Below, piece after piece: positions 9,273 to 27,852 of a DNA stretch of 64,000 nucleotides. Each line of letters opens with the position of its first letter. Position 1 is the first letter of the stretch. The DNA comes from Candidatus Gottesmanbacteria bacterium UBA6580 (GTDB lineage: Bacteria; Patescibacteriota; Microgenomatia; UBA10105; UBA927): assembly GCA_002433895.1 (NCBI GenBank), contig DJJA01000003.1, forward strand, positions 175,788 through 239,787, written 5' to 3'. The translations under genes were made by a program, and so were the position numbers. The notes beneath the pieces were generated by a model that was not told the DNA's origin, did not search any database, and saw nothing but the letters and a program-made list of their open reading frames with translations.

Positions 9273-9460
9273 CTCCCTTCACAAATAGAGTTTTGTGTGT
9301 CTGCCAGTAATACAGACGAAAGGGGTGTTTTCTTTCAGGCAAATTATTTAAAGAAAAAAGTAACTTCCGGGGAAATTTCAGAAACGCTCTACTCTCTGTT
9401 TGCTGGGTTTGTGATGACCACCTTGGCCTAATATGCGGGGCGCTGGCTTAAAAAGCGGGG

Positions 9461-9748: not shown

Positions 9749-9823
9749 AGATAGAAAATATCGGGAATTTAATGTTCCGGGCTGATAATTTCATCAAAAA
9801 AACGAAGATGTCTGTTTACGGCG

Positions 9824-10324
9824 TTATTCGCCAGCTTTCCGAATTGCTTCGAGGTCAAGCTTTTTCATCGGCATGAAAGCGGCGGTTACCGCCTCCGCTT
9901 TTTGCGGGTCGCGCATCATTTCATCTAATATTCTTGGGGTTACTTGCCATGTGACCCCGTATTTGTCGGTACACCATCCGCATTGCTCAGCTTCAGGAAC
10001 CGCGGAAAGTTTTTCCCAGAAAAAATCAATTTCTTCTTGTGTTTCACACTCAATAATAAATGAAGTTCCGCCATTTAACTTGAATTGGTCAACAGGGCCA
10101 CCATTAAGGAGCATAAAGCTTATCCCGTCTAGCTCGCATTCTACGGTTAAAATAGAACCCGCGGGTCTTCCTGAAACTTCTTCGCTTGCTTTGGGGGATT
10201 TCGTGATATCTCCCATTGATGCACTATGATTGCCGGGGGCGGCGTTGAATGTATCGATGTAGTATTTTGCGGCCTCTTCACCGTTGTTGTTCGCAAACCA
10301 GATGCAGGTAATGAGTTTACTCAT
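9824..10324 (-). CDS. VOC/PhnB-like (3-demethylubiquinone-9 3-methyltransferase-domain) protein
   Basis: MSKLITCIWFANNNGEEAAKYYIDTF... is typical of the PF06983 N-terminus. ORF 9824..10354; the probable start is MSKL at 10324. Confidence 0.6.
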   Translation of the reverse strand: MSKLITCIWFANNNGEEAAKYYIDTFNAAPGNHSASMGDITKSPKASEEVSGRPAGSILTVECELDGISFMLLNGGPVDQFKLNGGTSFIIECETQEEIDFFWEKLSAVPEAEQCGWCTDKYGVTWQVTPRILDEMMRDPQKAEAVTAAFMPMKKLDLEAIRKAGE

Positions 10325-10436
10325 TGTAATTATTCTAACAATTGTAAAAACCATTTTGCAACAGTGTTACTTTTCAGGTGCCAAAAGGGAAATCCGGTTC
10401 ACGGCGCTCTAATTCCCATTGTGGAGAAATATCTGC

Positions 10437-10832
10437 TTACCCTTTTGAAAATCCGAGATCGAGGAGCGTCCGGACCGCTTTTTCCGTGTGTTCAACTCTT
10501 ACCATAACGTAATCTTTTGAGTAGGTGGAAACTATAAGAATATTCATCCCTTCCTTTGCTATTGCCGAGCTGACTGCGGCGAGGAATCCGACAGAATAAA
10601 ACGGAACAGAAACTTTCAGTTCGATCAGGGAGTAGTCGTCTTTGTTTCTTTCAATGACGTCAAGACGGGTAAGATTTTCTTCTTTTGTAACGACGGTAAT
10701 TTCATCGGCATCCTTACTTACCAGAAAATGTTCATTAATCGGGGGTGCGGTACGCACCTTTGTATAAACGAACTTCCCCTCGTGAACAACAAAAGATGAA
10801 CTTTCGATAATCTTTTTTATGTCCTCATTCAT
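10437..10832 (-). CDS. ACT-domain (ACT_7-like) protein
   Basis: 131 aa with a beta-alpha-beta-beta-alpha-beta pattern (ELKVSVPFYSVGFLAAVSSAIAKEGMNILIVSTYSKDYVMV). Confidence 0.5.
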   Translation of the reverse strand: MNEDIKKIIESSSFVVHEGKFVYTKVRTAPPINEHFLVSKDADEITVVTKEENLTRLDVIERNKDDYSLIELKVSVPFYSVGFLAAVSSAIAKEGMNILIVSTYSKDYVMVRVEHTEKAVRTLLDLGFSKG

Positions 10833-10924
10833 GTGGTTATTGTATCAGAAAATTTGACCGTTACCTCCGTGAGTATCGAAAAATGAAGCTCGTTCGAACG
10901 GATCGCTTATTGGGACAATGCCTG

Positions 10925-11611
10925 TTATTTAACGGCATTAATGACCACGTGTGAAGCGATTTTTGCTTCATCGAGCCAATTATTGCCCGACACCAAAGGA
11001 AAGGACATTGAAACGGAAAATCCTATTTTTTCTAACACATTCCGATAGTCATCTTCCATCCAAAAATAATCGTCGATAACAAAGCTCTCTTTTCCTTTCT
11101 TAATTGTGCAAGGCATCTTATCTCCGCTTTTAAGATTGTCATTTTTCGGGTATCCGTAACTTATGTAGTTGCAGCCCATCGCTTGAGAATTGTTTGTGAT
11201 AATAACAAACGACCCGCCCGGCTTAAGAACTCTGTGTACTTCCTGGGAGATTTGCCTCATTTCCTCAATGCTGCCGACCTCTACAAACACATGGGCGGCA
11301 ATTGCTACGTCAAAGGTGTTATCGGGAAAAGGAATCATTTTTTCGATTTTGATAAATTCCAACTTTGGGTTCGAAAGTTTTTTTGCTTGATCAATCATGC
11401 TTTGATTGTGATCAACGCCAACCACCCGAGAAGCCCCCATAGAAAGAAGAAGTTGTGCCGTTCGTCCGGCACCGGATCCAAAATCCAACGCCGTTTTGCC
11501 GCTTAAATCACCAAATATTTTTCTTGCCTCATTGAAACCCGATTCGTAGGTTGTGCCGGTGATACCTAATTTGCTATATGTTTCGGCGTTTTGATCGGAG
11601 TAGGTGTACAT
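10925..11611 (-). CDS. Class I SAM-dependent methyltransferase
   Basis: Motif I ALDFGSGAGRTAQLL, motif post-I VVGVDHNQSM and LKPGGSFVI are present. Confidence 0.75.
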   Translation of the reverse strand: MYTYSDQNAETYSKLGITGTTYESGFNEARKIFGDLSGKTALDFGSGAGRTAQLLLSMGASRVVGVDHNQSMIDQAKKLSNPKLEFIKIEKMIPFPDNTFDVAIAAHVFVEVGSIEEMRQISQEVHRVLKPGGSFVIITNNSQAMGCNYISYGYPKNDNLKSGDKMPCTIKKGKESFVIDDYFWMEDDYRNVLEKIGFSVSMSFPLVSGNNWLDEAKIASHVVINAVK

Positions 11612-11711
11612 GGATGTATTTTAGCAAACGTTTGAGTTCTGTATAGGATGTGGGTTAGCAGGTATTAGCATTGCTCCGGACAATGAATGACCGGTAATTA
11701 GCACGAGCGCG

Positions 11712-12371
11712 CTAATACAGTTGCCTGAGTGTAATAATATCCGGCAAAATTTGCTTTACTCCCAGTTTTTCAGCTTCACGCCTATTGAGGTGCCCGGTAA
11801 GCACAACAATTGGTTCCACCAGCGCGTTTTGTGCCATTTTCGCGTCATTTTCCGCGTCGCCGATATAGATAGTTTCACTTGGAGTACATTGTTGTGTTTT
11901 CATAATCTGTTCGAGCATGTAGGGGTCGGGCTTTGTTTTTTCAGGCGGCACATCATAAGCGGTGACTATCTGCGCAAACACGTCGGGGATATTGAATCGC
12001 GGAAATATTTTCTTTTTGAGCATGTCGGGATGGTTTCCGGTTGCCACCGCAAGGGTATATTTGCTGCTGAGGTAGGTAAGTAACTCATTTGCTCCGGGGA
12101 CCTCACGCAGTTCCCGGACAAATACATCTCCCCAAAATTTTTCTTCAAACAATTTGTTTGCTTGATTGAGCAAATCAGGTCTTTCAAGAAGTAGCTCCCT
12201 TAACTCTTCTTGATACGGTTGACCCCATCGGCGTTGTATCCGTTTATGCAGTTCGTCTTCAGGCAAAACGATATTAAGTGCATTTAGCGTTTCTCTATAG
12301 CACGCGTAATAACCCTCTTTTGAGCCGAGCGTCACCACATCGTCCCAGTCAAAAACAACAAGCTTTTTCAT
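11712..12371 (-). CDS. HAD-family hydrolase
   Basis: The DxD motif (MKKLVVFDWDDVV) and the C-terminal IGDAENDAKMA motif are present. Confidence 0.75.
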   Translation of the reverse strand: MKKLVVFDWDDVVTLGSKEGYYACYRETLNALNIVLPEDELHKRIQRRWGQPYQEELRELLLERPDLLNQANKLFEEKFWGDVFVRELREVPGANELLTYLSSKYTLAVATGNHPDMLKKKIFPRFNIPDVFAQIVTAYDVPPEKTKPDPYMLEQIMKTQQCTPSETIYIGDAENDAKMAQNALVEPIVVLTGHLNRREAEKLGVKQILPDIITLRQLY

Positions 12372-12537
12372 GGAGAGAAGTATATCAGATTTGGATGTTT
12401 TACAAAGGTTACGCGAAATGAACGCTTCAATGTATTTGTCCTATGTAAAAAAGAAGTATTGTTATTTCATGGCCGGGTAGTTTGTCCGATATAAAGGCGA
12501 CTGTTAATTGCTTATTTTAAAATATCCGTATATATGA

Positions 12538-13224
12538 ATGGCGGTTATTAGGAGCTTTATCGGAGCACGTCAAATCCGTATAATGGTACGCATGTCTTTA
12601 CTGCAGGAGTTTGATAAACAAGTCCACAACTTAATTCAAAAGAGTTACCCCAAATTAGCCGGTATATCAGAAACTGAATTTATTAACCTTGTTGCGCCCC
12701 TAAAGACACACGTTGAAAAACTCGATGTACCAGATGGTGATTTTGAAATCGGGTATTTGCCTTTTGTCATTGTGATTAAAAGTGACGTGGTACCCACCGG
12801 TAAAGCAATGGCATTGGTGGAAAAGGATGGTAAAGCCGGAATAACAAAGCTTTTTCCCTACAAGCCAACCGATTTTCAGGTAATACCAGAAGTCGAGCTA
12901 CCCGGCGGCGGCGCTTATTTACTTATAGGAATTGATAGGGGTGGAGATACGATTAATGAGCCGCCCAGCGAAGCCATGAAAAAAATACGGGAAAAAGGCC
13001 GCACGCCCCTTACCATTGATGAGGGGGTAGCAATAATCACGCATTACCCTGAGTTTTTAATGAAGAATAACTGTTTTTCGCTTCTTGCCTCACGGCACGC
13101 AGGTGACCAAAGAGTCCCGGCGATCTGGATTAATGGGGCTAAACACCCTAATCTTGGCTGGTGCTGGAACGGGAATCCTCACACCTGGCTTGGGTCAGCG
13201 TCCTGCGGTAAGCGCACCGCCTGA
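12538..13224 (+). CDS. Hypothetical protein
   Basis: 228-aa ORF with no recognised domain. An alternative start is MSLL at 12592, preceded by TATAAT 7 nt upstream, so it may be leaderless. Confidence 0.4.
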   Translation: MAVIRSFIGARQIRIMVRMSLLQEFDKQVHNLIQKSYPKLAGISETEFINLVAPLKTHVEKLDVPDGDFEIGYLPFVIVIKSDVVPTGKAMALVEKDGKAGITKLFPYKPTDFQVIPEVELPGGGAYLLIGIDRGGDTINEPPSEAMKKIREKGRTPLTIDEGVAIITHYPEFLMKNNCFSLLASRHAGDQRVPAIWINGAKHPNLGWCWNGNPHTWLGSASCGKRTA

Positions 13225-14055: not shown

Positions 14056-14123
14056 ACCCTTCCCAGGTAGATTTTATCAGAAGTCCGCTGCGAATCACCG
14101 GGGTCTTGTCTCCAGAAGAATTA

Positions 14124-14163
14124 GAAAAAAACAACGACCCTTTCGGGTCATCACTTTTTGTTG
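14124..14163. terminator. Bidirectional hairpin/T-run at left edge of low-GC island
   Basis: Hairpin GACCCTTTCGGGTC flanked by aaaaaaa on the 5' side and ttttgttg on the 3' side. Confidence 0.4.
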
Positions 14164-14309
14164 CTCCGCTCATCTAGGCTCATTTTACCAGCTATTGTAA
14201 TTAATCCTTTTGAGAATATTGCCTACATGAGAGAGTTAGAACAACGATAGGAGGAAATAAAAAGACATAACAGCTCAATTGTTGCCTCAGTAGGAGTATA
14301 ATTTAGATA

Positions 14310-15155
14310 ATGGTAAATATTAACGCACCAGGAATTGAATTTTTTGAGAGTTTCGCAAACGAGATTGAAAGCAAATTCCAACGCATAAAGACCCTTGTGC
14401 CTCATCGAGTTGCCTCTGGCAATTATCATGAGGAAATAATTAGAACTATATTGAGAAATTTTCTAACCAAGAGATATTCGGTTAAAACGGGTTTTATCTA
14501 TAAATCTAACAGCGAAATCAGCAGACAACTTGATATTCTAATCATTGATGAAGATTCTCCTGCCGCATATCTTTTTCAGGAGGGAGATTTTGCGATAGTA
14601 ATACCTGAAGCAGTCATGGCCGTCCTTGAAGTAAAAACAACGCTAAATGCTCCAGATTTCGATGAGGCTTTAGAAAATATCGCTTCTGCGAAAAAACTGA
14701 TGAGGTTCCCAGCTGCAGCAACGGGAATTATTTTTGGCTACGGTGGCACCTCCCCAACAGATAATAATCTTGATAGATGGTACAAAAGGGCGACCCCATC
14801 ATCTTTTAGTGAGAGTGAGAAAAATTTACTTGGACCAAATGCCGTCATGTTTTTTACTGCCGGCTGCTTGCTTGCTCGATACACAGAAGAAGGCAAATGG
14901 GAAAGTGGGGGCAAGTACTATCACAAGCTATTTAGAGACGATTCAGTTAAAAAATCTCCCAGCGATGTGGCATGGCAACTATCTGTCATACTAGCGATGA
15001 CAATTGCTGCTTGTGAAAATGGAGAGATGAGCAGAACTCATATGTTTCCCGCAGGCTATGCGGACAGGCTTATCCAAAGTGAGGGTGGTATGATTAGCCA
15101 TTCAAGATTTGCATTTGGAGAGGGCCTTTCAAGGAGAGAATATGCCTCTCGCTAG
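14310..15155 (+). CDS. PD-(D/E)xK-like nuclease-fold protein resembling the DUF6602 family
   Basis: The N-terminal third reads GNYHEEIIRTILRNFLTKRYSVKTGFIYKSNSEISRQLDILIIDEDSPAAYLFQEGDFAIVIPEAVMAVLEVK. This gives D...(E/D)...EVK spacing typical of restriction-endonuclease-like folds, and matches the DUF6602 signature as I recall it. TATAAT lies 7 nt upstream of the ATG, suggesting a leaderless transcript. The gene is low GC, about 36%. Confidence 0.45.
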   Translation: MVNINAPGIEFFESFANEIESKFQRIKTLVPHRVASGNYHEEIIRTILRNFLTKRYSVKTGFIYKSNSEISRQLDILIIDEDSPAAYLFQEGDFAIVIPEAVMAVLEVKTTLNAPDFDEALENIASAKKLMRFPAAATGIIFGYGGTSPTDNNLDRWYKRATPSSFSESEKNLLGPNAVMFFTAGCLLARYTEEGKWESGGKYYHKLFRDDSVKKSPSDVAWQLSVILAMTIAACENGEMSRTHMFPAGYADRLIQSEGGMISHSRFAFGEGLSRREYASR

Positions 15156-15439
15156 TTACAGACATCCTTAATAACATTTATTAAGGAAATTATTGTTGCA
15201 ATAGTAGAGATTATTGTAAGCACTAATAACCATTTGTTGGTATTACTAGCTTGCCTTTCTAAACTTACTTGATGCATTGCTAATCGCTTAATCAAATGTT
15301 TAATAATATCCAGGTTCTGTTTTTCACCTGCCGGAGTTTTAGGTATAGTATTGGCCTCTCTAATAGCATCCTTTATAAGCTCATCTGATTTTTTGAATTT
15401 TTCTAGGTAGGCTTCTTTTTCGATGTCTTTTTCGTTCAT
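15152..15439 (-). CDS. Small tail-anchored membrane protein (95 aa)
   Basis: Probable start MNEKDIEKEAY at 15439, 5 nt after the stop of the upstream ORF, with AGGA 14 nt upstream. Helical N-terminus and a single C-terminal TM (WLLVLTIISTIATIISLINVI). Confidence 0.4.
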   Translation of the reverse strand: MNEKDIEKEAYLEKFKKSDELIKDAIREANTIPKTPAGEKQNLDIIKHLIKRLAMHQVSLERQASNTNKWLLVLTIISTIATIISLINVIKDVCN

Positions 15440-15443
15440 ATAA

Positions 15444-15908
15444 TTATTTAATCCTGCAAATGTTGCATAAATATGGAAAAATGTTATCAATAAGTGTTAT
15501 CAAATATATTACTATAAATATCCAAATTACTATAAAAGACGCAATTTTTGTATTAATAAAAGCCTCGTTTTTGATTTTATGTATTAAACCTTCAACAAAG
15601 GGATTAATCTGATTTTTATGCCCATGCTTATCTTCAATTGTTCTTGCTAAATCAGTCCAAAACTTAGTCCACATAAAGCCTCTCTTTGTCATTTGAAGCC
15701 ATAGTAAACACAAAATTATTCCTAAAGGGGGAAGAATTTGTTTAACGAGAATTGGAACATTTGAGTTAGGGTTAAGCGTAAGACCAATTAAGGTCATAAA
15801 TATTGTATTTACAACAAGCATTGCATTGTAGCGCTCCCACTGGATTTGTGACTCAGCAATACGCATATTTATATAAGCTTCGTATTCAGACTTAGAGCTA
15901 TTTTTCAT
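15444..15908 (-). CDS. Small 3-TM membrane protein (154 aa)
   Basis: Start MKNSSKSEYEAY at 15908. Three hydrophobic helices. About 30% GC. No homolog recognised. Confidence 0.4.
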   Translation of the reverse strand: MKNSSKSEYEAYINMRIAESQIQWERYNAMLVVNTIFMTLIGLTLNPNSNVPILVKQILPPLGIILCLLWLQMTKRGFMWTKFWTDLARTIEDKHGHKNQINPFVEGLIHKIKNEAFINTKIASFIVIWIFIVIYLITLIDNIFPYLCNICRIK

Positions 15909-15945
15909 ATCAAAAACCACAAAAAACCTGCATCGGGGCAGGTTA
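15909..15945 (-). terminator. Possible minus-strand intrinsic terminator
   Basis: Hairpin AACCTGC-atcggg-GCAGGTT (15925-15944), followed on the minus strand by the U-run ttttttgtggttttt. This would stop read-through from the hsd/CBASS operon, running antisense across the HTH gene. Confidence 0.3.
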
Positions 15946-16153
15946 TATTAAGGCCAGTTTGCTCCCTAGCCCTAAGACTATTATACTGCCTAATTTTAAA
16001 GCTATTTTAACAGCGATTACTAACTCCGCTTATATGGGTGAGATGCGTGCTAGGTGGAACGAAATTAAAAAGTTACGCCAAGAACCAAAATTAGCACTAC
16101 AAGCTAGTATTTGAGGCTAAAGTTGGACAGATTGGACACATATAAAAAAGGCT

Positions 16154-16573
16154 ATGGCAAAACGAAGTGAAATTAAGGAACAACAGGAAAAGTTTATAGC
16201 TGAATTTAAAAGCCTACGCTCGGCCGGTAACGTGTTGGTTGCCTGTCAAACCCTAGGTTATGCGCGTAGCACTGTGTATCATTGGCGAATAATTGATGAG
16301 GGGTTTGCCCACCTTTGGGATGAAACGGTGCTTGATGGATTTGACATACGTGCCGATGAAGCTGAAAACGCCCTACGGTTAGCAATTACCAAAGACCGTA
16401 ATATCACTGCCATTATTTTTACCCTTAAAAACTTACGGCCAGACAGATATAGGGAAAGGTTTGACGTTGAGTATAAAGGTAAGATTGCAAACGAACTAAA
16501 GCAGAACTTTTTAGCTACTTTAAGTAGATTGGGGAAAAATGCTGATGAACAATTACGAAGGAAAAAAATATAG
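16154..16573 (+). CDS. HTH-domain protein (terminase-small-subunit-like or transposase-like HTH)
   Basis: The N-terminus KEQQEKFIAEFKSLRSAGNVLVACQTLGYARSTVYHWR shows the pattern of phage TerS/HTH_Tnp-type helix-turn-helix. It is the only plus-strand gene in a run of minus-strand genes. AAGG is 4 nt upstream of the ATG. Confidence 0.35.
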   Translation: MAKRSEIKEQQEKFIAEFKSLRSAGNVLVACQTLGYARSTVYHWRIIDEGFAHLWDETVLDGFDIRADEAENALRLAITKDRNITAIIFTLKNLRPDRYRERFDVEYKGKIANELKQNFLATLSRLGKNADEQLRRKKI

Positions 16574-16590
16574 CAACGAATATAGGACCC

Positions 16591-17184
16591 CTATTTTTTA
16601 GTAAACACTAATTTACCCCTTGTTTTCCTGTTTTCATCATTGGAGTAATATCCCTCAAGTTTCTTGTTATTTATTACATCTAAATATGTAAAACCCTCGT
16701 GCATACCACCAGATACTGAGTTAAGTAAGGTTTTTGAGCGAGCCTTACTCCGATAAGCATAAACTAAAAACCATTTACCATTTTCCTTTTGTTTGAGCCT
16801 AGCAAAATAACTTTCAAAGTCTGAACTATTGCCAAAGTCACCTTCAATGTATAAGGTTGAGTAGCTTTGAGTTATTGTAGCGATACCTGAGCCCTTTTTG
16901 CCATTATTAAATGTACTTTCATATTTTATTTGCCAACTACCAGTTAATACTGGGTACTCATAAAAACCGACTAGTTTACACAACAAAAATGCCAACCATT
17001 GTTCTTTCCAAAGCCATTTATCCCAAGCGTAATATAACCCATAAATTATGAAGCTCACAGTTCCAACTGACGCAATGAATGAAGCAATGCCATTTCCTAA
17101 AATCCCCCCTATCCATTTAGCTATAACTTGGATTAACGCAACTAATATTACGATTGAGGTGATGTATTTTTGTTGATCTTTCAT
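16591..17184 (-). CDS. 2-TM plus C-terminal beta-rich domain protein, candidate Cap15-like CBASS effector
   Basis: 197 aa. It has two N-terminal TM helices (ITSIVILVALIQVIAKWIGGILG..., ASVGTVSFIIYGLYYAW) and a roughly 130-aa beta-rich C-terminal domain. It overlaps the upstream nucleotidyltransferase gene by 4 nt. Confidence 0.45.
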   Translation of the reverse strand: MKDQQKYITSIVILVALIQVIAKWIGGILGNGIASFIASVGTVSFIIYGLYYAWDKWLWKEQWLAFLLCKLVGFYEYPVLTGSWQIKYESTFNNGKKGSGIATITQSYSTLYIEGDFGNSSDFESYFARLKQKENGKWFLVYAYRSKARSKTLLNSVSGGMHEGFTYLDVINNKKLEGYYSNDENRKTRGKLVFTKK

Positions 17185-18020
17185 ATATTAAAAAATTGGC
17201 GAAAATAACTGTTTGCTAACGTTTCCGACGTTGCCCTTGCCGCGGCATTTAATTGTGGCAACTTATTGGCAATATGTTGCCTGAAGGCTATAAAACTTTG
17301 AGGAGACCATTCATTTTGTGAAATAACTATTTTATCCCCTGCAACAGTTGTGAATGTTGAAACGAAACTTTGACCAACCATATGGCTAAGTATGTTATTT
17401 AGCGAATACGCTAAGTCATTACCAAATGAATTGTCTGTATAGCTATAAACTAAACACTCAATATAAAAAGATGGGGCAATGTTTTTTAAGTTCCAATTAT
17501 TAACATAATTTTTCAACATTCTTACTAACTTTTTATAATTGTTGTTTGTACGCTGGTTTTTAGCTTGCCCGTTAGCAAGATGGGTCTTGGGATAGTTTCT
17601 TATGCTTTGAGCGATAATCAGTGGTTCCCTGTATTGATTAAGTTGAACAGCTGTGGACCTTATTGCAGGAACGATATCTGCTTGTTTGGTATTAAGGTTT
17701 ACTGTTAAACATTTATGACCAATTGTTACCATCCCCATATAGTTTTGATTTGCTTCCAGTTTATTTTTAATGTCATAAAAAAGGTTGCTCGGCTGACTTG
17801 AGCCTGTTAATAGGCTCATAAGTGGGTTATGAACGGCAACTATGTCAACATCGTTAATATCGGATATCGCTGTATCATTAGCGTAGCTTCCTTGCAAAAA
17901 AGTTTCGTAATTCGGTAAAAGTGCCCTAATGTTGTTGTGAAGGGAAGATATATCGGTCATTGTGGTTTGTGAAACCCCGCTTGAAACCTGACTAATTAAT
18001 CCTTGTGATACGTACGACAT
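17181..18020 (-). CDS. CD-NTase/SMODS-like nucleotidyltransferase (candidate cyclic-oligonucleotide synthase)
   Basis: GS...DxD Pol-beta NTase motif (LQGSYANDTAISDINDVDIVAV). A third acidic residue sits in hDhVPa context (KQADIVPA) about 55 aa later. There is a downstream helical region (YKKLVRMLKNYVNNW). 279 aa. The start lies 1 nt after the hsdS stop. Confidence 0.5.
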   Translation of the reverse strand: MSYVSQGLISQVSSGVSQTTMTDISSLHNNIRALLPNYETFLQGSYANDTAISDINDVDIVAVHNPLMSLLTGSSQPSNLFYDIKNKLEANQNYMGMVTIGHKCLTVNLNTKQADIVPAIRSTAVQLNQYREPLIIAQSIRNYPKTHLANGQAKNQRTNNNYKKLVRMLKNYVNNWNLKNIAPSFYIECLVYSYTDNSFGNDLAYSLNNILSHMVGQSFVSTFTTVAGDKIVISQNEWSPQSFIAFRQHIANKLPQLNAAARATSETLANSYFRQFFNI

Positions 18021-18021
18021 A

Positions 18022-19251
18022 TTAGTTATTAAATGTTTTAGCTAAAACTGCTTGGGTTAGTTTTGATACCTTTGCTTCCGCGGCCTCAATTTGCTTTTCA
18101 ACTTTATCTGCAAGCTCAAAATAGCTTTTTACCCTTTTTACTATTTCCTTCTGTTCTTCCAGAATTGGAATTTCAATGGGCAAGTTTCTCAAATCCTCCA
18201 AGTTTATCCCTGTATATGCAACTCCCTTCTGTACGTTTGCTAGCCAATATTGTGAAACAGTTGACCCAATATAATATGCGATAAAATCTGGGAAAACTTT
18301 GCTTTTATCTACTGGGACTACTGCTACCTCGCGGGAAACGTTCCATCCCTTCATTTCAGTTGGGACAGCCACGACACCACCTAGCGTTCCACGCACGTTA
18401 ACCAATACCTCACCGCCCATTAGTATCGTCCTTGAGTAACTTGACGATAAAGTAGGTGAAATTCGTTTTAGTCCATTTAATTCAAAATTCAACCATCGGA
18501 CATTACTTGTTCTAAGACACGGAGTCCCATCTTCAATATGTTCTCCCAACTTAATCACACCATAACTTATACCTTTACCTTTTTCGCATAATTCACCCAA
18601 TGCTTTATTTGCCCATACACTATTTAAGTCTTTTATCGTTGACAGCTGTTTCTTCCGCCAATCCTCGGTAAGTTTTCCGGTAATCGCCGCAGTTAAAATT
18701 GCTTGACGAAAATTATTGAGCTGATTTTTAGCACTAGTTAACTTACTAGCAGTTTTATGGATTGAAATAATTTGGTTATTCAGTAAATCGGCAATTTTAT
18801 TTTGAGTTGTTACATCTGGCAACTTTATTGGGATTGTTTTCATTGCAGATTGTGTTAGTTTCAATCTGGTTGTACCTGCAACATAGTCACTAAAATCAAA
18901 ATAATCCAAGTAGTATTTAATAAACCGATTATTTGAAATATCTTTTCTTGCCCTTAAAACGTGTGCGTGATTATTTACCCAACTTTTGCCGTTGATTATG
19001 TACGCGATTGGCTTGGATTTATCCAAAAAGGGGGCGCCATCTTCGCCCAGAAGCACCAATTCCTCATCAAAAATATAATCGTTAATCCAACCTACCTGAC
19101 CTGTTGCTCCATAATAGGGTACCTCACCAATTCTTTTACTTCTGTCATTTGAGTTAATTGGCACCCTTTGGCCATCTAAAATATCAACACAATCTTTAAG
19201 TTGGTATTCCTTCCAACCATTGTTATTTAGTACCGTCTGTGAATTCTGCAT
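18022..19251 (-). CDS. hsdS: Type I restriction-modification specificity subunit HsdS
   Basis: Two target-recognition domains are separated by the conserved central helix (NKIADLLNNQIISIHKTASKLTSAKNQLNNFRQAILTAAITGKL). The C-terminal conserved repeat is present (LEEQKEIVKRVKSYFELADKVEKQIEAAEAKVSKLTQAVLAKTF). Confidence 0.85.
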   Translation of the reverse strand: MQNSQTVLNNNGWKEYQLKDCVDILDGQRVPINSNDRSKRIGEVPYYGATGQVGWINDYIFDEELVLLGEDGAPFLDKSKPIAYIINGKSWVNNHAHVLRARKDISNNRFIKYYLDYFDFSDYVAGTTRLKLTQSAMKTIPIKLPDVTTQNKIADLLNNQIISIHKTASKLTSAKNQLNNFRQAILTAAITGKLTEDWRKKQLSTIKDLNSVWANKALGELCEKGKGISYGVIKLGEHIEDGTPCLRTSNVRWLNFELNGLKRISPTLSSSYSRTILMGGEVLVNVRGTLGGVVAVPTEMKGWNVSREVAVVPVDKSKVFPDFIAYYIGSTVSQYWLANVQKGVAYTGINLEDLRNLPIEIPILEEQKEIVKRVKSYFELADKVEKQIEAAEAKVSKLTQAVLAKTFNN

Positions 19252-20644
19252 ATATTTTTTCCAAGCTATGTGTAGCTTCCTTTAGTTCAGACAGTACGCT
19301 TTTAATAAGTTCTTCAGGTTTGCCAATATCATCACCATTTTCAATATCTTCGTCTTTAATCCACTTAAAACCATCCAACTTGTAATGCTTTTCTTTAACC
19401 TGAGCGATGGTAAACATTTTCCAACGATTTTCTTTGGAGTCAGCTTCTTTACGCGGTGATTGACCATTAGGATTGTCGCCGTAACACTTTTCAAACCCCT
19501 CAAAATGTTTGTGGGTTAGCGGCCTATCTTTAACCGTTATTCCCGGTACATTAGTGCGCGCATCATAAATCCACACGTTTTCCGTGGGTATTCCTTTGGT
19601 AAAAAACACTACGTTGGCTTTAACACCTTGGCTATAAGGGGTAAACGTACCGTTAGGTAAACGTAAAATTGTGTGCAGGTTGCAATCCTGCATCAAAATC
19701 TTAAACACTTCTGCCGCTTGGTCGCCGAAAAGCACGTTGTCGGGCAGTACAACCGCCGCACGGCCTCCCGGTTTAAGGATGGTAAGGATATGTTGCGCGA
19801 AGTTTAGCTGTTTATTGCTTGTTGCAACGGTAAAGTCCTGCCGCTCCGGTACTTGGTTAGCCCCCTTAGTGCCAAATGGCGGGTTTGTCAGTACCACATC
19901 GTACCTGTCACCGCGGTCAGGCTCATAAATGCTGTCGCCTAATCGTATGTTGGAAATAATACCGTGCAGGTATAGGTTCATTAACGCTAACCTGCGTGGC
20001 CTTGCTACTAGCTCCGTGCCATAATAAGTTTTTTCCCTTATACGCTTAATGTCTTCGCGGTTAATTGCACCTTTGCTTTGGTGCATTAACCACTCATAGG
20101 CGCTTAACAAAAATCCACCTGTACCTGCGGCTGGGTCACATATCGTAAAGTCTTTTATTTCCCTTGGGTCGGGTTTCATTACATTGACTATTGCTTGGAT
20201 TAGGACACGGGGAGTGAAGTATTGCCCTGCGCCCTTTTTACCCTCGGCGGCTGATTTTTCTAGTAAACCCTCGTAGGCTTGGGCTTTAACATCAATGTTT
20301 AACCCCGACCAATCAATTTCATCAATAAGGTCAATCAAACGTTTAAGGTTTACTGGTTTGGTGAACTTAGATAGCGCTTCAACAAAAATCGCCCCAAGTA
20401 AACCTTCTTGTCGTGCTAAACCACGCAATAGCTCACTATAAAAATCAATTAACTCAGTGCCAGATTTGGATTTAAGCACTTCCCACGAGTACTTCTTAGG
20501 TATGTCTGCACCCTTTTCCTCCGCCATTTTCAAAAAAAGCAAATAGGTAAGTTGTTCCACATAGTCACCATAATCCATACCGTCGTGCCGGAGTACGTGG
20601 CAGTAACCCCATAATTTGTTAACAATGTTTGTATTAGTTTGCAT
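19223..20644 (-). CDS. hsdM: Type I R-M N6-adenine DNA methyltransferase HsdM
   Basis: LTNPPFGTK (NPPF motif IV), the SAM-binding motif CDPAAGTGGFL, and the HsdM N-terminal domain are present. Confidence 0.9.
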   Translation of the reverse strand: MQTNTNIVNKLWGYCHVLRHDGMDYGDYVEQLTYLLFLKMAEEKGADIPKKYSWEVLKSKSGTELIDFYSELLRGLARQEGLLGAIFVEALSKFTKPVNLKRLIDLIDEIDWSGLNIDVKAQAYEGLLEKSAAEGKKGAGQYFTPRVLIQAIVNVMKPDPREIKDFTICDPAAGTGGFLLSAYEWLMHQSKGAINREDIKRIREKTYYGTELVARPRRLALMNLYLHGIISNIRLGDSIYEPDRGDRYDVVLTNPPFGTKGANQVPERQDFTVATSNKQLNFAQHILTILKPGGRAAVVLPDNVLFGDQAAEVFKILMQDCNLHTILRLPNGTFTPYSQGVKANVVFFTKGIPTENVWIYDARTNVPGITVKDRPLTHKHFEGFEKCYGDNPNGQSPRKEADSKENRWKMFTIAQVKEKHYKLDGFKWIKDEDIENGDDIGKPEELIKSVLSELKEATHSLEKIYAEFTDGTK

Positions 20645-23336
20645 AGGCGTATACCTGTGGCATCGTCGTATTTAATTGGGTAATAAATGGCAACAATCTG
20701 TCGTCAAAATCCGCGTTAATACGCTTAAAACTTCCACCTAAATCTGTAAATATCGGCATTTCATCAAAGTCCTCCTTATCAATGGTTAAGTTTTCAGCCA
20801 AATGTAGTTTTATAAGCTCAATCCATTGTTCCTGTTTTTCATTTAACTTTTGTTTTCCAATAACCTTTTCAACCGCAAGGTCAACCCGTTCTTTGGCTGA
20901 CAATAACGGCTCGTCTTTGGCGGCGTGTTTGACCATTGAAATAATGTCTGCCAAGGGGTATTTATAAGCACGGCGCAAGTTGTCTTCAGTAAATCGCTCA
21001 GGTTGTTTGGATAGTGAGGTGCGCAATTCTGTTAAGGCTTTGGTATTCCACCCTTGGGGCTTACTTAACACAATGCTTATCGCCTCAATATGCTCGGGGT
21101 TATCTTTTACAAACCGCTCAAACTGTTTTAGGTAATCCTCAGGCTTTAGTTCGCGCCCGTCGGTGGTCCTAAAGACAAACTCGGATGTAACTGTGTCTTC
21201 CTGCTCAATCGCCCTTATAAAGCGTTTAGGCGGCCTTGGGTAGTTTTTAAGTAGGTCAATAAAGTTCGGGTCTGTCAGCGTCTTTAATGTGCCAACCCTA
21301 TCCTCACTCAACATATCCGGCAACTTTTTGGCAAACGCGCTTACATCCCCATCGGGTATAAAGTTGGCAAACATTTCCCGCCCTTCAGCGGTGGTATTTT
21401 TAGCAATGCGTTGCAGTCGTTTTACCAAACAGCGTGTGTTGTACTCAACCTCAATGTTGTCGTTTATAGCTTTTATAATTTCTTCAATACTTCTTGTTGG
21501 GTTGGTTGGTGTTACTTGGGTTATACCAGTGCTATTCTTAAATGCCTCAAGCAATGTTCCATCAAAACAATCAAACACGGTAAAGTGTGTTTTTGGCGGT
21601 GTTCCTAAACCGTTAGGGAAGTTTGTGCAAAGACGTGTACCGCGCCCAAGCATTTGCTCAAATAAGATACGGGACTTAACCGGCCGTAAAAACACGATGT
21701 TTTCAATTGAGGGTACATCAATACCGGTTGATAACATATCAACGGTAACTGCAATATGCGGTTCAGGTCTATTCCTAAACTCCTTTATGCGGGTTAATGG
21801 CCTATCCACGGTTGGTGAACCGGTAATTTTCTGTACAAAGGCATCCCCTCGGCCAAATGTATCGCGGCAAATATCAACTAACTGGTCGGCGTGTGAAGTA
21901 TGAGCTAAATCGTTATCAGCAAATATAAGCGTTTTGGGAAACCGGCCAAACTCCTTTTCCTGTTCCAAGGCATACTTAGCAAACTCCTGTATGATTTTGC
22001 GGTTGCTGTCTGGTGCTGTAATATCCCGTTCAACGTCAGCCACATCAAAATGTCGTTCGTCCTCCAATAAATCAAGTTGTTGTGCGCCGGTTTGTGTATC
22101 AACCTGTTCAACTTCCTCGCCTTCTTTTAGGGTAATGCCTTGTATGCGTACACCTGATGCTATCTTTACCGCGTCATAATCAACCAAATATCCATCTTGC
22201 ACAGCCCGCTCATAAGTGTAGCGGTATGCAATTTCCTTAAAGTAACTGGTGGTGTGGGCGGCAGGTGTAGCAGTTAAGCCTATCTTTGTGGCGTCAAAGT
22301 GGTCCAATACTCCGCGCCATTTACTTACTTCGTGGCTTGTATAACCCCTGTGGCACTCATCAGCAATAATCGTGTCAAACGCGTTAATCGGCATTTCAAT
22401 TTTGTCTGCATCATCATCTGGGTCGTAGTCGCCGCTATAACTAAACATACCCTCACGGCCATACAGGTTTATTTGCATCCGTTGGATGGTTGAAATATAC
22501 ACAAACACTTGGTTACCGTCAGGGTCAGTTAAATAGCCTGTGGGAATGACATTAAAATCAACCTTTTCATTGGCCTCAAAATCGTCTACCTTAAAACGTT
22601 GGCTATACACTTGGTAAATCTGGTTAAACTTTAGGCCGTTTTCGGCTTCATACGCGGCAAACTCCATTACTGCTTGGGCGGCAAGGGCTTTTCTGTCAAC
22701 CAAAAACAAAACGCGCTTACTAACACCGGACTTTAGCAGGCGGTAAACTAACGAGGCAATTGTGTAGGTTTTACCCGTACCGGTTGCCATAGCAATCAGC
22801 ATTGACCGTTTATTTTCAGTAATGTTTTTTTCAATCGCTGTTATAGCCTCACGTTGGTAGTGGCGGAGCTTACTATTGTTCGGTGGATTGGCAGTAAACC
22901 AACGTGCGTTACTTTGCGTGTCGCTAGTTAGGTACTCAATTAACGCTTTAGGCGTATGGAACTCCTGTACTTGGCGTGAGCGGCTTGGGGTAATGCGCAA
23001 ATCCTCATACCAAATAACTTCACCATTAGTGGAGTAAATAAACGGGACTGTTAAACCTTGTTGTTGTGCACCTTTAACATAACGATGGGCTTGCTGTAAG
23101 ACGTTTTGCGGACCAAGGCTTATCTTTTTTGCCTCAACAAACGCAATTAACTTACCATTTGCAAATAAGGCATAATCCGCCGGTCCGGTAGTGGTCATAT
23201 ATTCGGTAACCGCTACCTTATGCAAGGTTGAAGTATCCATCCCCTCCTTATAGGGGATTATCTTATCCCAACCAGCCTTTTTTAATTTATCGTCAATCCA
23301 CTTTTTACGAGTGGCTTGCTCGTCAATAATATCCAT
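20634..23336 (-). CDS. hsdR: Type I R-M restriction endonuclease/helicase subunit HsdR
   Basis: 900 aa. The N-terminal nuclease domain is followed by SF2 helicase motifs (MATGTGKTYT Walker A, DECHRG DEAH box). Confidence 0.9.
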   Translation of the reverse strand: MDIIDEQATRKKWIDDKLKKAGWDKIIPYKEGMDTSTLHKVAVTEYMTTTGPADYALFANGKLIAFVEAKKISLGPQNVLQQAHRYVKGAQQQGLTVPFIYSTNGEVIWYEDLRITPSRSRQVQEFHTPKALIEYLTSDTQSNARWFTANPPNNSKLRHYQREAITAIEKNITENKRSMLIAMATGTGKTYTIASLVYRLLKSGVSKRVLFLVDRKALAAQAVMEFAAYEAENGLKFNQIYQVYSQRFKVDDFEANEKVDFNVIPTGYLTDPDGNQVFVYISTIQRMQINLYGREGMFSYSGDYDPDDDADKIEMPINAFDTIIADECHRGYTSHEVSKWRGVLDHFDATKIGLTATPAAHTTSYFKEIAYRYTYERAVQDGYLVDYDAVKIASGVRIQGITLKEGEEVEQVDTQTGAQQLDLLEDERHFDVADVERDITAPDSNRKIIQEFAKYALEQEKEFGRFPKTLIFADNDLAHTSHADQLVDICRDTFGRGDAFVQKITGSPTVDRPLTRIKEFRNRPEPHIAVTVDMLSTGIDVPSIENIVFLRPVKSRILFEQMLGRGTRLCTNFPNGLGTPPKTHFTVFDCFDGTLLEAFKNSTGITQVTPTNPTRSIEEIIKAINDNIEVEYNTRCLVKRLQRIAKNTTAEGREMFANFIPDGDVSAFAKKLPDMLSEDRVGTLKTLTDPNFIDLLKNYPRPPKRFIRAIEQEDTVTSEFVFRTTDGRELKPEDYLKQFERFVKDNPEHIEAISIVLSKPQGWNTKALTELRTSLSKQPERFTEDNLRRAYKYPLADIISMVKHAAKDEPLLSAKERVDLAVEKVIGKQKLNEKQEQWIELIKLHLAENLTIDKEDFDEMPIFTDLGGSFKRINADFDDRLLPFITQLNTTMPQVYAYAN

Positions 23337-23350
23337 ACTTATTTTTATCT

Positions 23351-23548
23351 TTACTTTTTATTCTTATTTTCCTCAATGTAACGCTCAATGTCTTCCAATT
23401 TATAGCGCCTATCACCGACACCCCTGCGTGAACCAATACGGATGGAGGGCAATCGTCCTTCATTATCCCAGCGCCTTAATGTTTCGGGGTTTACGCCTAA
23501 AATATCAGCGGCTTGTTTAATTCTTAGTAGTTTAACGACCGGTTTCAT
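23351..23548 (-). CDS. Excisionase/MerR-family HTH DNA-binding protein
   Basis: LRIKQAADILGVNPETLRRWDNEGRLPSIRIG is typical of Xis/HTH_17 proteins. It ends 14 nt before the hsdR start. Confidence 0.6.
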   Translation of the reverse strand: MKPVVKLLRIKQAADILGVNPETLRRWDNEGRLPSIRIGSRRGVGDRRYKLEDIERYIEENKNKK

Positions 23549-23629
23549 AACTTACACATAATTATACATCGTCAGGCTTGTTTTTGCTCCTCCAAAATTC
23601 ACTTTTACTCCAGTAGACTGTCCTTCACT

Positions 23630-23827
23630 ATGAACTACAGGGATTTGATGGCGGAAGCACGGGCGATACATTTTGCTATGCACCACGGTAGCATTACCTA
23701 TGAGGAAGCACAGGTAAAAGTTAAGCCGGTTTTGGAAATACTAAATAGGAAGAATGCCAAGATAGCGAAAAGACACGGAGTAACCCCACGGAAGTTTACA
23801 TTCCAAAGCCTAGGACGAACTTTTTAG
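23630..23827 (+). CDS. Small hypothetical protein (65 aa)
   Basis: ORF only; divergent from the excisionase-like gene. Confidence 0.3.
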   Translation: MNYRDLMAEARAIHFAMHHGSITYEEAQVKVKPVLEILNRKNAKIAKRHGVTPRKFTFQSLGRTF

Positions 23828-24036
23828 AAAAACGTACTTAGGGATGTTTTTAATGCTTTGGCAATTTTTTCCAGCACCTCAAGGGATGGTGTGTACCTGC
23901 CTTGCTCAATATACCCCATATAAACACGACTGACATTAACTTTATCGGCTAAATCATTTTGGGTTAATCCGCACACCTTCCGCCTTTTTTGGATTTTTTT
24001 ACCTAGCACTTTTGGCAATCTGGCATTTTTCCGCAT
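23824..24036 (-). CDS. XRE-family HTH transcriptional regulator
   Basis: LTQNDLADKVNVSRVYMGYIEQGRYTPSLEVLEKIAKAL is a classic Cro/C1 HTH. ORF 23824..24072; the likely start is MRKN at 24036. Confidence 0.65.
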   Translation of the reverse strand: MRKNARLPKVLGKKIQKRRKVCGLTQNDLADKVNVSRVYMGYIEQGRYTPSLEVLEKIAKALKTSLSTFF

Positions 24037-24162
24037 ATTGTAATTGTGGAAAACGCATCGTCCATAATCCACTAAGCCAGACTAAGCATTTAGCCTTAAA
24101 AAGGGCTTGTTTTTATGCTAAGCATCATTTAGCATTATCTTATTGAGGCAAGGAGGTGAAAT

Positions 24163-24450
24163 ATGGACGTATTACTTAAAACAAGGTGTACCAAAGGCCA
24201 CTTAATCGTTTACGCAGATAAGGTTGCAATTGAAGCGCTTAAGCTACTTGGTTATCAACAATCAAACGCACTCGCCTACAAACAGATTACGGGAGTGGAA
24301 GTAAAAATGACCCAACCGGACATACTCGGCTTAGGACAAGCTACGGTAACTATCCATAGCGCTGGTGGCCAAACACTTATAGCTGACAGGGTAAAACTTA
24401 AGGATGCTAAGGAAGTTGAAAAACTAATCCAGGAACGAATTGCCAAATAA
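24163..24450 (+). CDS. Hypothetical protein (95 aa)
   Basis: ORF with RBS ggaggtg. No recognised domain. Confidence 0.35.
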   Translation: MDVLLKTRCTKGHLIVYADKVAIEALKLLGYQQSNALAYKQITGVEVKMTQPDILGLGQATVTIHSAGGQTLIADRVKLKDAKEVEKLIQERIAK

Positions 24451-24525
24451 TAGTGCGTAAATAAGCTCCATTCAATCGTATTCTTCGTCCGTTTTTCTTA
24501 TAATTGTCTTAATAAGGATAAAAAT

Positions 24526-26349: not shown

Positions 26350-27852
26350 ATGAAGGACGAAGTATATGTTTATATAAGGGTTTCAACGTCGGAGCAGGCA
26401 GACGAGGGGTTTTCTATTGATAACCAAAAACGAGCCTGTAAGGAGTTTTGCGAGGCACGAGGTTACCACATAAAGCGGATGTTTGTTGAGGATGGGCGAA
26501 GCGCTAGGACTACCGAAAGACCCGCTTTACAGGAAATGCTCAAGGCCTTGGTAGATACGCCAGTTGGCGCAATTGTTATTTATAAGATTGATAGATTTGC
26601 CCGTAACGTAACCGACTTTTCAAGGCTTTATAACGAGTTTAAGACAAAGGGAATACAGCTCATATCAGTAAGCGAGGGCAACTTAAGCGAGGGGACAAGT
26701 TTAGTGCCAAACATTTTTGCCAGTGTTGCGCAATGGGAGAGCGAAGTTAATAGTCAACGAACACGCGATGCGTTAATGCAAAAGTTTAGGGAAGGCTGGC
26801 AACCAACCCCACCCCCTATTGGGTATAGGAGTGTTGGCGCTGACAGGGAACGAAAAACTTGTGAACCAGACCCATACACTGCACCGATAATACGGGAGCT
26901 ATTTGAGCTATATTCAACCGGCAACTACTCAATTTATGAGTTACAAAATTGGTTAGCCGAACGGGATATTGTTAGTAAAACTGGCACACCCATAGGTCAC
27001 AGTGTAATTGGAACAATACTTAATAATCGGTTTTATTATGGTTGGATTAGCTGGCACGGTGAGGGGAAAACGGGCAAACATATGCCAATTATTAGTAAGG
27101 ACTTATTTGATACGTGCCAATATGTATTAGCAAAACACCGTAACTTCCTAACACGTAATCGCATTCACCAGTTTTTACTCCGCGGGTTCGTACACTGTGC
27201 TGAGTGTGGCCAACGATATACCGCGGAGTGGCATTTTAAGCCTAGATTTACTAAACGAAACGGCAAGATTGCTTATTACCATTGCCCCAAGATGAACCGC
27301 AATGGTTGCCCTGCGCCATACGTGGAGGTGGGTGATCTTGAAAAGTTGGTATTCGACACTGTAAAAGGTGTGCAATTTAGCCAAGATTTTATTGATGCTG
27401 TGGTTGATAAAGCGCGTAGATTTGTTGATGACAGTAGGAAGCGTGCAGGTGGCGATATGCAAGCGTGTATTAACCAGCGCACTGCACTTGAGTTTAAGCG
27501 CAACAAACTTGAAGACGCCTTACTAGATAACACGATTGACCGTACTGTTTTTAAGCGCAAGCACGATGAAATTGAAGCGCAGATTAGGTTAATTGACGAC
27601 CGAACACGCGAGATTGAAGCACAAAGTCACGTTGACATTAAACTTGTTGAGGACGTGCTTAACTTTACCCGCGATGTAGGCAGAACATACGACGAAGCGC
27701 CTGACTTTTTGAAACGACATTTTTTACGCTTCTTTTTTGAAAAGATAATGGTAAAAGATAAGAAGATAGCGGAAGTTATTTACACACCAATAATAGCGCC
27801 GTTAGTGGCAAACCACTCGGTTATAATAAAAAACCTTATGCTCCCCCGGTAG
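26350..27852 (+). CDS. Large serine recombinase (integrase)
   Basis: Resolvase catalytic domain (VYVYIRVSTSEQADEGFSIDNQ...IYKIDRFARN), recombinase domain, and a Zn-ribbon (CAECGQRYTAEWH...YYHCPKMNRNGC). 500 aa. The last 12 nt overlap the tRNA-Asn 3' end on the opposite strand. Confidence 0.9.
   Translation: MKDEVYVYIRVSTSEQADEGFSIDNQKRACKEFCEARGYHIKRMFVEDGRSARTTERPALQEMLKALVDTPVGAIVIYKIDRFARNVTDFSRLYNEFKTKGIQLISVSEGNLSEGTSLVPNIFASVAQWESEVNSQRTRDALMQKFREGWQPTPPPIGYRSVGADRERKTCEPDPYTAPIIRELFELYSTGNYSIYELQNWLAERDIVSKTGTPIGHSVIGTILNNRFYYGWISWHGEGKTGKHMPIISKDLFDTCQYVLAKHRNFLTRNRIHQFLLRGFVHCAECGQRYTAEWHFKPRFTKRNGKIAYYHCPKMNRNGCPAPYVEVGDLEKLVFDTVKGVQFSQDFIDAVVDKARRFVDDSRKRAGGDMQACINQRTALEFKRNKLEDALLDNTIDRTVFKRKHDEIEAQIRLIDDRTREIEAQSHVDIKLVEDVLNFTRDVGRTYDEAPDFLKRHFLRFFFEKIMVKDKKIAEVIYTPIIAPLVANHSVIIKNLMLPR

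Follow-up and report, generated by a model that had tools for sequence, protein, structure and literature searches.

A clade E-like CD-NTase and Cap15 gene pair, a probable two-gene type I CBASS, on an apparent integrative island of a Candidatus Gottesmanbacteria genome

The 64,000-nucleotide stretch of DNA analysed here (the window; contig DJJA01000003.1 of Candidatus Gottesmanbacteria bacterium UBA6580) carries two adjacent minus-strand genes, cdn and cap15, encoding a cGAS/DncV-like nucleotidyltransferase (CD-NTase) and a two-helix transmembrane (TM) protein with a cyclic-dinucleotide receptor domain. The cdn open reading frame (ORF) begins with ATG and specifies a protein of 279 residues, Cdn, and its stop codon overlaps the start of cap15 by 4 nt (ATGA). 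The pair stands last in a string of six co-oriented, overlapping or abutting genes, in the order HTH_17, hsdR, hsdM, hsdS, cdn, and cap15, the hsd genes being those of a type I restriction-modification (R-M) system (Table 1). We consider it very probable that cdn and cap15 constitute a two-gene type I cyclic-oligonucleotide-based antiphage signalling system (CBASS), composed of a CD-NTase and Cap15. What the analysis shows of the pair is how the genes are arranged, which families the proteins belong to, how they fold in the models, and that catalytic residues and synteny are conserved.

Table 1. Features of the cdn-cap15 locus and of the surrounding island, in window coordinates.
Feature	Position	Strand	Evidence or remark
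cap15, 197-aa effector	16591..17184	-	Pfam, PADLOC, hydropathy, AlphaFold2, Foldseek
cdn, 279-aa CD-NTase (probable CBASS cyclase), clade E-like	17181..18020	-	ORF, Pfam, PADLOC, PDB and profile matches, AlphaFold2, Foldseek
hsdS, type I R-M specificity subunit	18022..19251	-	Pfam Methylase_S 2.2e-34; PADLOC Specificity_I 1.3e-65
hsdM, type I R-M methyltransferase	19223..20644	-	Pfam N6_Mtase 6.3e-62; PADLOC MTase_I 2e-170
hsdR, type I R-M restriction/translocase subunit, EcoEI-type C-terminus	20634..23336	-	Pfam ResIII 1e-37, EcoEI_R_C 1.2e-34; PADLOC REase_I 2.5e-100
65-aa HTH_17/MerR/excisionase-like DNA-binding protein	23351..23548	-	Pfam HTH_17 2e-13; NCBIfam excisionase-family domain
GATGTATAAT, conserved -10-like element	23561..23570	-	one occurrence in the window; same place in related elements L005, L091, and L092
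Large serine recombinase of the integrative island	26350..27852	+	Pfam Resolvase/Recombinase/Zn_ribbon_recom
tRNA-Asn	27840-27912	-	abutted by the recombinase gene

The cyclase and its effector

The original prediction had recognised in this ORF a GS...DxD motif and a third acidic residue within ADIVPA, and both were found in the translation: LQGSYANDTAISDINDVDIVAV supplies G44 and S45 followed by D57-V-D59, and D115, the third acidic residue, lies within KQADIVPA. In an alignment of 43 homologues sharing 34-75% identity, G44, S45, D57, D59, and D115 were all invariant, and for that reason the motif is better regarded as a conserved active site than as a chance match. Further invariant positions were K103, C104, H147, K163, R167, K170, E188, A227, D229, K230, and W238. 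As catalytic and receptor residues are invariant among relatives of cdn and cap15 that span 35-75% identity, Cdn looks, from its sequence, like an active enzyme under purifying selection. The N-terminus (MSxIS..L) was likewise kept across the aligned family, which favours the annotated start of cdn; an internal start at Met21 was considered and rejected, the first 20 residues being retained family-wide.

The assignment to the CD-NTase/SMODS family, also part of the original prediction, was supported. The Pfam SMODS model matched Cdn at 6.4e-9 (36.7 bits against a gathering cut-off of 26.5), as did 33 PADLOC models of CBASS 'Cyclase' proteins, the best of which (PDLC00788, 3.3e-32) aligned over nearly its full length (model positions 38-291 of 297), and the precomputed Pfam annotation of an identical protein (P0001) includes CD_NTase_C (PF26305). 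When the single sequence was compared with all sequences in the PDB, the best match was RmCdnE (6E0K, 8e-19), followed by LpCdnE, EmCdnE, EfCdnE, and ClCdnE, and a profile built from the 43 homologues strengthened the RmCdnE match to 3.8e-41. An AlphaFold2 model computed on the same alignment reached a mean predicted local distance difference test (pLDDT) score of 90.4 and a predicted template modelling score of 0.86. Searching the PDB with this model in Foldseek had been put forward as a check on the original prediction, with non-signalling nucleotidyltransferases as the outcome that would count against it; the top 50 matches were all signalling CD-NTases (best 3e-16), CdnE enzymes first and then CdnC, CdnD, CdnG, CdnB, and DncV. 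The five best PDB sequence and profile matches and the 13 best fold matches were all CdnE, with 20-26% identity to the solved CdnE structures in the Foldseek alignments. Judged by sequence and predicted fold, Cdn belongs among the signalling CD-NTases and is closest to clade E (RmCdnE, LpCdnE, EmCdnE). The family is already covered by existing models in Pfam (SMODS, CD_NTase_C) and PADLOC.

These same comparisons bear on whether Cdn could be a non-signalling nucleotidyltransferase of the Pol-beta fold (an antitoxin of the MNT type, an enzyme resembling KNTases, or a relative of the CCA-adding enzymes, for instance) lying by chance beside a membrane protein. Weak matches of that kind exist, below the cut-off to Pfam NTP_transf_2 (0.0029) and far below it to an NCBIfam archaeal CCA-enzyme model (2.5e-4), but all strong sequence, profile, and fold matches are to CD-NTases, CD_NTase_C is annotated on the identical protein, and the partner is a dedicated cyclic-dinucleotide receptor whose pairing with Cdn is kept in all relatives examined. 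We therefore regard this alternative as exceedingly improbable.

For the effector, the expectation had been a Cap15-like protein with two TM segments and a beta-rich domain, and this is what was found. In Cap15, the TM helices span approximately residues 7-29 and 31-56, and the C-terminal part, from about 76 to 196, forms a beta-barrel of the cyclic-dinucleotide-receptor type. Pfam Cap15_CD_rec matched residues 76-196 at 7.1e-14 (52.6 bits against a cut-off of 31.2; model positions 2-122 of 122), and PADLOC '2TM' CBASS effector models matched at 2.8e-25; the NCBIfam scan returned no name for this protein. Hydropathy showed two N-terminal peaks, centred at about residues 15-22 and 37-42, and the AlphaFold2 model (pLDDT 83) placed helices at 2-29 and 31-37/40-56, together with a short helix that serves as a linker and a beta domain of eight strands. 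Direct comparison with the PDB by phmmer gave a marginal match (E 0.054), so that a fold comparison was needed, and in Foldseek the best PDB matches were both crystal forms of the Yersinia aleksiciae Cap15 (7n34 and 7n35, E 1e-7), on which the barrel superposed with target template modelling scores of 0.84-0.87 and a root-mean-square deviation of 2.0-2.4 Å.

Among the genes examined from 13.2 to 27.9 kb, Pfam and PADLOC detected no Cap2 or Cap3 (E1/E2/JAB), HORMA, or Trip13 genes, and besides the pair itself only genes of the R-M, helix-turn-helix (HTH), recombinase, 8xMP, and DUF6602 kinds were present. No conserved third gene follows cap15 in the relatives, and both observations place the system in type I. 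A third component 3' of cap15 was considered and rejected: the ORFs that follow in L005/L092, L091, L089, and L093 (relatives described below) are mutually unrelated and are absent from the window. A CdnE-type cyclase with Cap15 is among the commonest and best-characterised architectures of type I CBASS; being a known architecture, the pair adds little as a CBASS system.

The size of the enzyme had also drawn attention, as being shorter than most CD-NTases and perhaps defining a compact clade. This idea did not survive comparison with its relatives and was rejected. The 120 best word-indexed homologues ranged from 245 to 331 aa (median 287) and 130 full-length representatives from an exhaustive search ranged from 245 to 349 aa (median 294.5). 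In both sets 13-14% of homologues had 279 residues or fewer, placing Cdn at about the 13-14th percentile; solved CdnE chains have 292-307 aa. Within the subclade at 43% identity or more, lengths were 276-288 aa except for one member of 297 aa, and relative to its neighbours this subclade differs by two loop deletions of about 5-8 residues each, with no domain lost. Nor is the family rare, since the exhaustive search recovered 783 representative clusters at E <= 1e-3.

Expression, predicted product, and activation

The spacing of the six-gene string is tight throughout, with a single nucleotide between the hsdS stop and the cdn ATG, an overlap of 29 nt between hsdM and hsdS, and one of 11 nt between hsdR and hsdM. 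The HTH_17 gene at the head of the string is conserved in three related elements (L005, L091, and L092), in one of which (L091) it directly precedes cdn-cap15. Thirteen nucleotides upstream of its start lies the -10-like element GATGTATAAT, with an equivalent site in the same three elements, and on this sequence conservation we regard it as the best candidate promoter for the whole HTH_17-hsdRMS-cdn-cap15 string. The pair is thus probably co-transcribed with the type I R-M operon. Restriction and CBASS together would give a first-line defence and a second-line defence by abortive infection in one mobile unit.

No recognisable Shine-Dalgarno sequence precedes cdn, and the promoter signal was not above background, as might be expected of a CBASS remnant that has decayed or fallen silent and that the island carries as a passenger. 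However, both ORFs are intact, the invariance of catalytic and receptor residues described above extends across relatives at 35-75% identity, the identical operon was found on 15 contigs from several samples, and tight coupling to the upstream genes provides a route to cdn translation. A remnant is in our view very improbable; like a non-signalling nucleotidyltransferase, it is disfavoured by the fold, the catalytic conservation, and the conserved pairing.

Cap15 is described as the commonest TM effector of CBASS; on sensing cyclic dinucleotides that contain uracil, it oligomerises and causes damage to the inner membrane (PMC10419184). In experiments on staphylococci, a CdnE03-Cap15 pair provided defence (PMC10686824). 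In the window cdn and cap15 are translationally coupled, and the system would act by abortive infection. By analogy with characterised CdnE-Cap15 systems, phage infection would activate the cyclase, whose two-metal site (G44-S45, D57-x-D59, and D115) would join two nucleoside triphosphates into a cyclic dinucleotide. Binding of this dinucleotide to the Cap15 beta-barrel would then lead the effector to oligomerise in the inner membrane and breach it, so that the infected cell would die before phage release.

Which dinucleotide would be made can be approached through the three 'lid' positions that set the specificity of CdnE enzymes. In these, an Asn at lid 1 reads the acceptor uracil (N166 in RmCdnE, N169 in ClCdnE), a His or Asn occupies lid 2, five positions further on, and lid 3 is an (R/Q)xW motif whose Arg or Gln pairs with an upstream Glu and so excludes purine donors (PMC10442399). 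Cdn has N142 at lid 1, kept in at least 90% of the family, and the invariant H147 at lid 2, corresponding to N169 and H174 of ClCdnE. Lid 3 reads N236-E237-W238, of which W238 is invariant among the 43 homologues. In the profile alignment, W238 falls on W281 of EfCdnE and W276 of LpCdnE, N236 on R279 and Q274, and T225 on E267, so that the Trp is retained while Thr225...Asn236 stand where the Glu...(R/Q)xW clamp would be. A retained Trp without the clamp is also the arrangement in the cUMP-AMP synthase RmCdnE, the closest relative, and we therefore tentatively put forward a uracil-purine cyclic dinucleotide resembling 3'3'-cUMP-AMP (cUA for short) as a possible product, although the odds fall somewhat short of even; cyclic di-UMP (cUU) is the alternative. 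A uracil-containing product of the predicted kind fits the Cap15 receptor. The lid combination of Cdn (Asn, His, and N-E-W, with no clamp) could serve to test the published rules of CdnE product specificity.

The same two-gene layout could in principle follow an inverse logic of the Panoptes kind, with the cyclase constitutively on, its dinucleotide restraining the effector, and phage sponges or nucleases (Acb2- or Tad-like) releasing the toxin. The effectors OptE and PanE belong, like Cap15, to the S-2TM-beta family and respond in the opposite way (PMC12657218; bioRxiv 10.64898/2026.08.10.743927), robust in vitro activity in the absence of a ligand is reported for the clade E enzyme EcCdnE01 (bioRxiv 10.1101/2023.05.21.541620), and Cdn has no evident ligand-sensing surface. 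Yet the inverse systems described so far all use mCpol or DAC synthases rather than CD-NTases, 73% of 617 surveyed S-2TM-beta effectors lie beside a CD-NTase and are classed as CBASS Cap15 (bioRxiv 10.64898/2026.08.10.743927), and the effector in the window matches the receptor-domain model of Cap15 in Pfam as well as the structure of YaCap15. Inverse signalling at this locus accordingly appears improbable, and conventional CBASS signalling, in which the dinucleotide would activate Cap15, is preferred.

Several points nevertheless weigh against this account of the pair, its expression, and its product. RmCdnE, the nearest characterised enzyme, is only about 26% identical to Cdn. Cdn does not reach the NCBIfam equivalog cut-offs for CBASS_cyclase_b (78.3 bits against 200), CBASS_cyclase_a (37.3 against 200), or DS2_2 (88.3 against 350), and from these scores we conclude that it represents a distinct subfamily, a relative rather than a member of those equivalogs. 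In the effector, Pfam Cap15_TM scored under its cut-off (15.7 bits against 28.2). Promoter and terminator scans did not rise above shuffled controls and were not used as evidence, so the case for co-transcription with the R-M genes comes down to gene spacing and the conserved -10-like motif. The N-terminal helix of Cdn has no Lys or Arg ahead of R32, and hence the surface by which Ssc-CdnE03 binds CBASS-activating bacteriophage RNA (cabRNA; K9, K13, and K20) is not evident. Lastly, a pyrimidine donor might still be favoured by the invariant Trp238, with cUU as the outcome, and the product prediction takes as its basis a profile alignment of the C-terminal loop rather than a structural superposition.

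Relatives, restriction-modification neighbours, and the mobile island

Nine cdn-cap15 contexts were compared, the window included, and the identities given here for each context are those of its Cdn to Cdn of the window. The pairing was kept in all nine, and the 4-nt overlap was the same in every relative inspected. The window, with HTH_17-hsdR-hsdM-hsdS before the pair, shares its exact six-gene order with L005 (66%) and L092 (65%); HsdR is 84% identical in both and HsdM 86% and 84% identical, respectively, whereas HsdS is 27% identical in the former and 31% in the latter, so that specificity differs. L091 (64%) shares the island backbone (recombinase 64%, HTH_36 protein 60%, HTH_17 protein 63%) and has the HTH_17 gene directly before the pair, with no R-M genes. 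In L093 (56%; recombinase 63%) a type III-like pair, N6_N4_Mtase and ResIII, precedes cdn-cap15, and in L090 (47%) the pair lies between hsdS plus Shedu (SduA) on one side and an unrelated hsdR on the other. L088 (67%), L089 (70%), and L094 (56%) have no adjacent R-M genes. A scan of species-representative genomes with Cdn gave a best match of 66% identity.

Recombinases of 63-64% identity adjoin the pair in L091 and L093. Across a family of integrative islands that carry serine recombinases in Patescibacteria, cdn-cap15 is the conserved cargo. Since the neighbouring R-M genes vary among type I, type III-like, and none, the two-gene CBASS is the constant unit and the R-M modules are its interchangeable neighbours, a pattern that fits modular defence islands. 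The locus offers a clean example of CBASS in a genome of the Patescibacteria (Candidate Phyla Radiation) of roughly 1.1-1.2 Mb, and of modular design in a mobile island, where one cdn-cap15 cargo goes together with R-M modules that can be exchanged, apparently under one promoter. A housekeeping ribonucleotide reductase encoded in the window is 100% identical to a protein recorded for a 'Patescibacteria group bacterium' and shares 76-79% identity with proteins of Candidatus Gottesmanbacteria, and contigs that carry the identical cdn gene reach 1.13 Mb.

Whether the association with R-M goes beyond neighbourhood was weighed as a separate question. An analogy is offered by PrrC, an anticodon nuclease that lies within the prr type Ic locus (PrrC/EcoprrI/Stp). 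In a guard of this kind, functional wiring would connect cdn-cap15 with the type I enzyme, and CBASS would fire, for example, once a phage anti-restriction protein has disabled Hsd or HsdR has generated DNA fragments. The 1-nt gap between hsdS and cdn, in a co-oriented and overlapping or abutting hsdR-hsdM-hsdS-cdn-cap15 string, would suit such wiring, as would the linkage to R-M in five of the nine contexts: the window, L005, and L092 with the same string, L093 with type III-like mod/res genes, and L090 with another type I system and Shedu. The Ssc-CdnE03-Cap15 operon is also flanked by type I R-M (PMC10686824). On the other side, the pair occurs without adjacent R-M at comparable or higher identity (L091, L088, L089, and L094), three of the five linked cases represent one ancestral architecture, the partnering R-M systems are unrelated in type, and this speaks against a specific protein-protein interface, and defence genes gather in islands through mobility alone. 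With R-M partners that are unrelated and often absent, a specific coupling of CBASS to restriction is possible but unsupported, and we consider the guard unlikely. The same low standing applies to the broader proposal that R-M and CBASS form a single two-layer functional unit, with CBASS regulated by restriction or sensing its failure or by-products in the manner of PrrC, a proposal founded on the recurrence of the pair directly 3' of, and in the same orientation as, type I R-M genes of two unrelated families and of type III-like R-M genes on related islands. If it were true, the repeated placement would reflect CBASS guarding R-M in ultra-small Patescibacteria. The reading preferred here remains that of an independent CBASS pair with interchangeable R-M neighbours.

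In L090, positions 2628-12651 form a metagenomic type I R-M locus with DUF1016/YhcG, Shedu (SduA), and cdn-cap15 embedded between hsdM and hsdR, a compact example of an R-M operon as a landing pad for defence genes. In several Dehalococcoidia genomes (L047, L052-L054, L062, L065, L083, and L084), distant Cdn homologues (27-32% identity) have a divergent HsdM-like methyltransferase gene about 0.3-0.9 kb upstream. This too may be a recurring neighbourhood of R-M and CBASS genes, although shared ancestry of these related genomes may account for it.

In the window, the pair lies within a block of low GC content at about 14-27 kb (14100-27912; GC 0.34-0.41 against 0.44-0.52 in the flanks) that ends at the recombinase and looks like an integrative island. 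Its left boundary is approximate, having been set from the drop in GC and a terminator at 14126-14159, and no att-type direct repeats of the 3' end of tRNA-Asn were found at that edge. Other island genes encode an HTH_36 protein (25811-26242) that resembles phage replication initiators, a 263-aa protein, and an XRE-type HTH_3 protein. Convergent with cap15, and with its stop 17 nt away, is a plus-strand gene (16154-16573) for a 139-aa HTH protein that matches PHROG terminase-small-subunit families (phrog_4044, 3.9e-13). Five loci from Patescibacteria metagenome-assembled genomes (L029, L031, L033, L034, and L035) have homologues of this protein (31-36% identity) at most a few kb from a Cdn homologue. 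With this TerS-like gene, the island resembles a phage satellite of the kind of the phage-inducible chromosomal islands.

A 281-aa DUF6602 protein is encoded on the plus strand (14310-15155), and its N-terminal 130 residues match PADLOC models of NucC-type effectors and CRISPR-associated PD-DExK nucleases (1.8e-29 to 3.7e-20). We considered this NucC-like nuclease as a second CBASS effector and rejected it, as it does not stand beside cdn-cap15 in any relative; it was treated as a separate island gene and may be a stand-alone defence nuclease. Between it and the CBASS pair, two overlapping minus-strand genes for small membrane proteins (15152-15920) encode a 158-aa member of the '8xMP' octameric family (Pfam 1.1e-13) and a protein of 112 aa that has a TM segment at its C-terminus.

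Beyond the tRNA-Asn gene, 26-nt direct repeats that are 92% identical (27930-27955 and 28232-28257) flank an apparent small minus-strand ORF, which on reading its sequence looks like a GIY-YIG nuclease, and a partial copy of the 5' end of tRNA-Asn (28254-28270; compare 27900-27916) follows the second repeat. Either the insertion of a homing endonuclease or an old integration event beside the tRNA gene may have left this arrangement at 27930-28270 as its footprint. Elsewhere in the window, ARAGORN identified a tRNA-Ile with the anticodon TAT (57441-57513, plus strand); most bacteria read the AUA codon with a CAT tRNA that carries the lysidine modification.

Comparison with known systems

The clade E cUMP-AMP synthase RmCdnE (PDB 6E0K/6E0L) is the best match of Cdn by sequence, profile, and fold. 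Both enzymes have the GS/DxD/D active site and a lid-1 Asn (N166 in RmCdnE, N142 in Cdn) in an NYPK(x)H motif, and both are without the Glu-Arg/Gln clamp that limits the donor to pyrimidines (PMC10442399). They differ in that Cdn, at about 26% identity, is 17 residues shorter through loop deletions, and in that the Cdn family has its own invariant AGDK...EW segment (A227, D229, K230, and W238).

The cyclic di-pyrimidine synthases LpCdnE, ClCdnE, and EfCdnE (7X4F, 7X4A, and 7X4C; PMC10442399) likewise belong to type I CBASS with Cap15. Cdn shares the lid-1 Asn with all three, the lid-2 His with ClCdnE and EfCdnE, and the lid-3 Trp. Unlike them, it reads N-E-W in place of (R/Q)xW and has Thr225 at the position of the Glu partner, and the missing donor clamp suggests, from the aligned sequences, a mixed uracil-purine product rather than cUU.

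In gene content and setting, the pair is similar to the type I-B CBASS of Staphylococcus schleiferi, in which the clade E cyclase Ssc-CdnE03 is encoded with a 2-TM Cap15 effector in a two-gene operon flanked by type I R-M (Banh et al. 2023, PMC10686824). That system defends by membrane disruption, and its cyclase makes cyclic GMP-AMP when activated by phage cabRNA bound through K9, K13, and K20 (PMC10686824). In contrast, and comparing by description, basic residues are absent from Cdn ahead of R32, and the Asn at lid 1 suggests that its product contains uracil. The effector has the two TM helices and beta-barrel receptor of the Yersinia aleksiciae Cap15 (PDB 7N34/7N35), with about 21% identity over the barrel.

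Finally, Panoptes (OptS/OptE) and Panoptoo (PanS/PanE) are also two-gene systems that join a nucleotide synthase to an S-2TM-beta effector homologous to Cap15. Their synthases are of the mCpol or DAC type and they signal by nucleotide loss, whereas the synthase encoded in the window is, by sequence and fold, a CD-NTase, the enzyme that defines CBASS.

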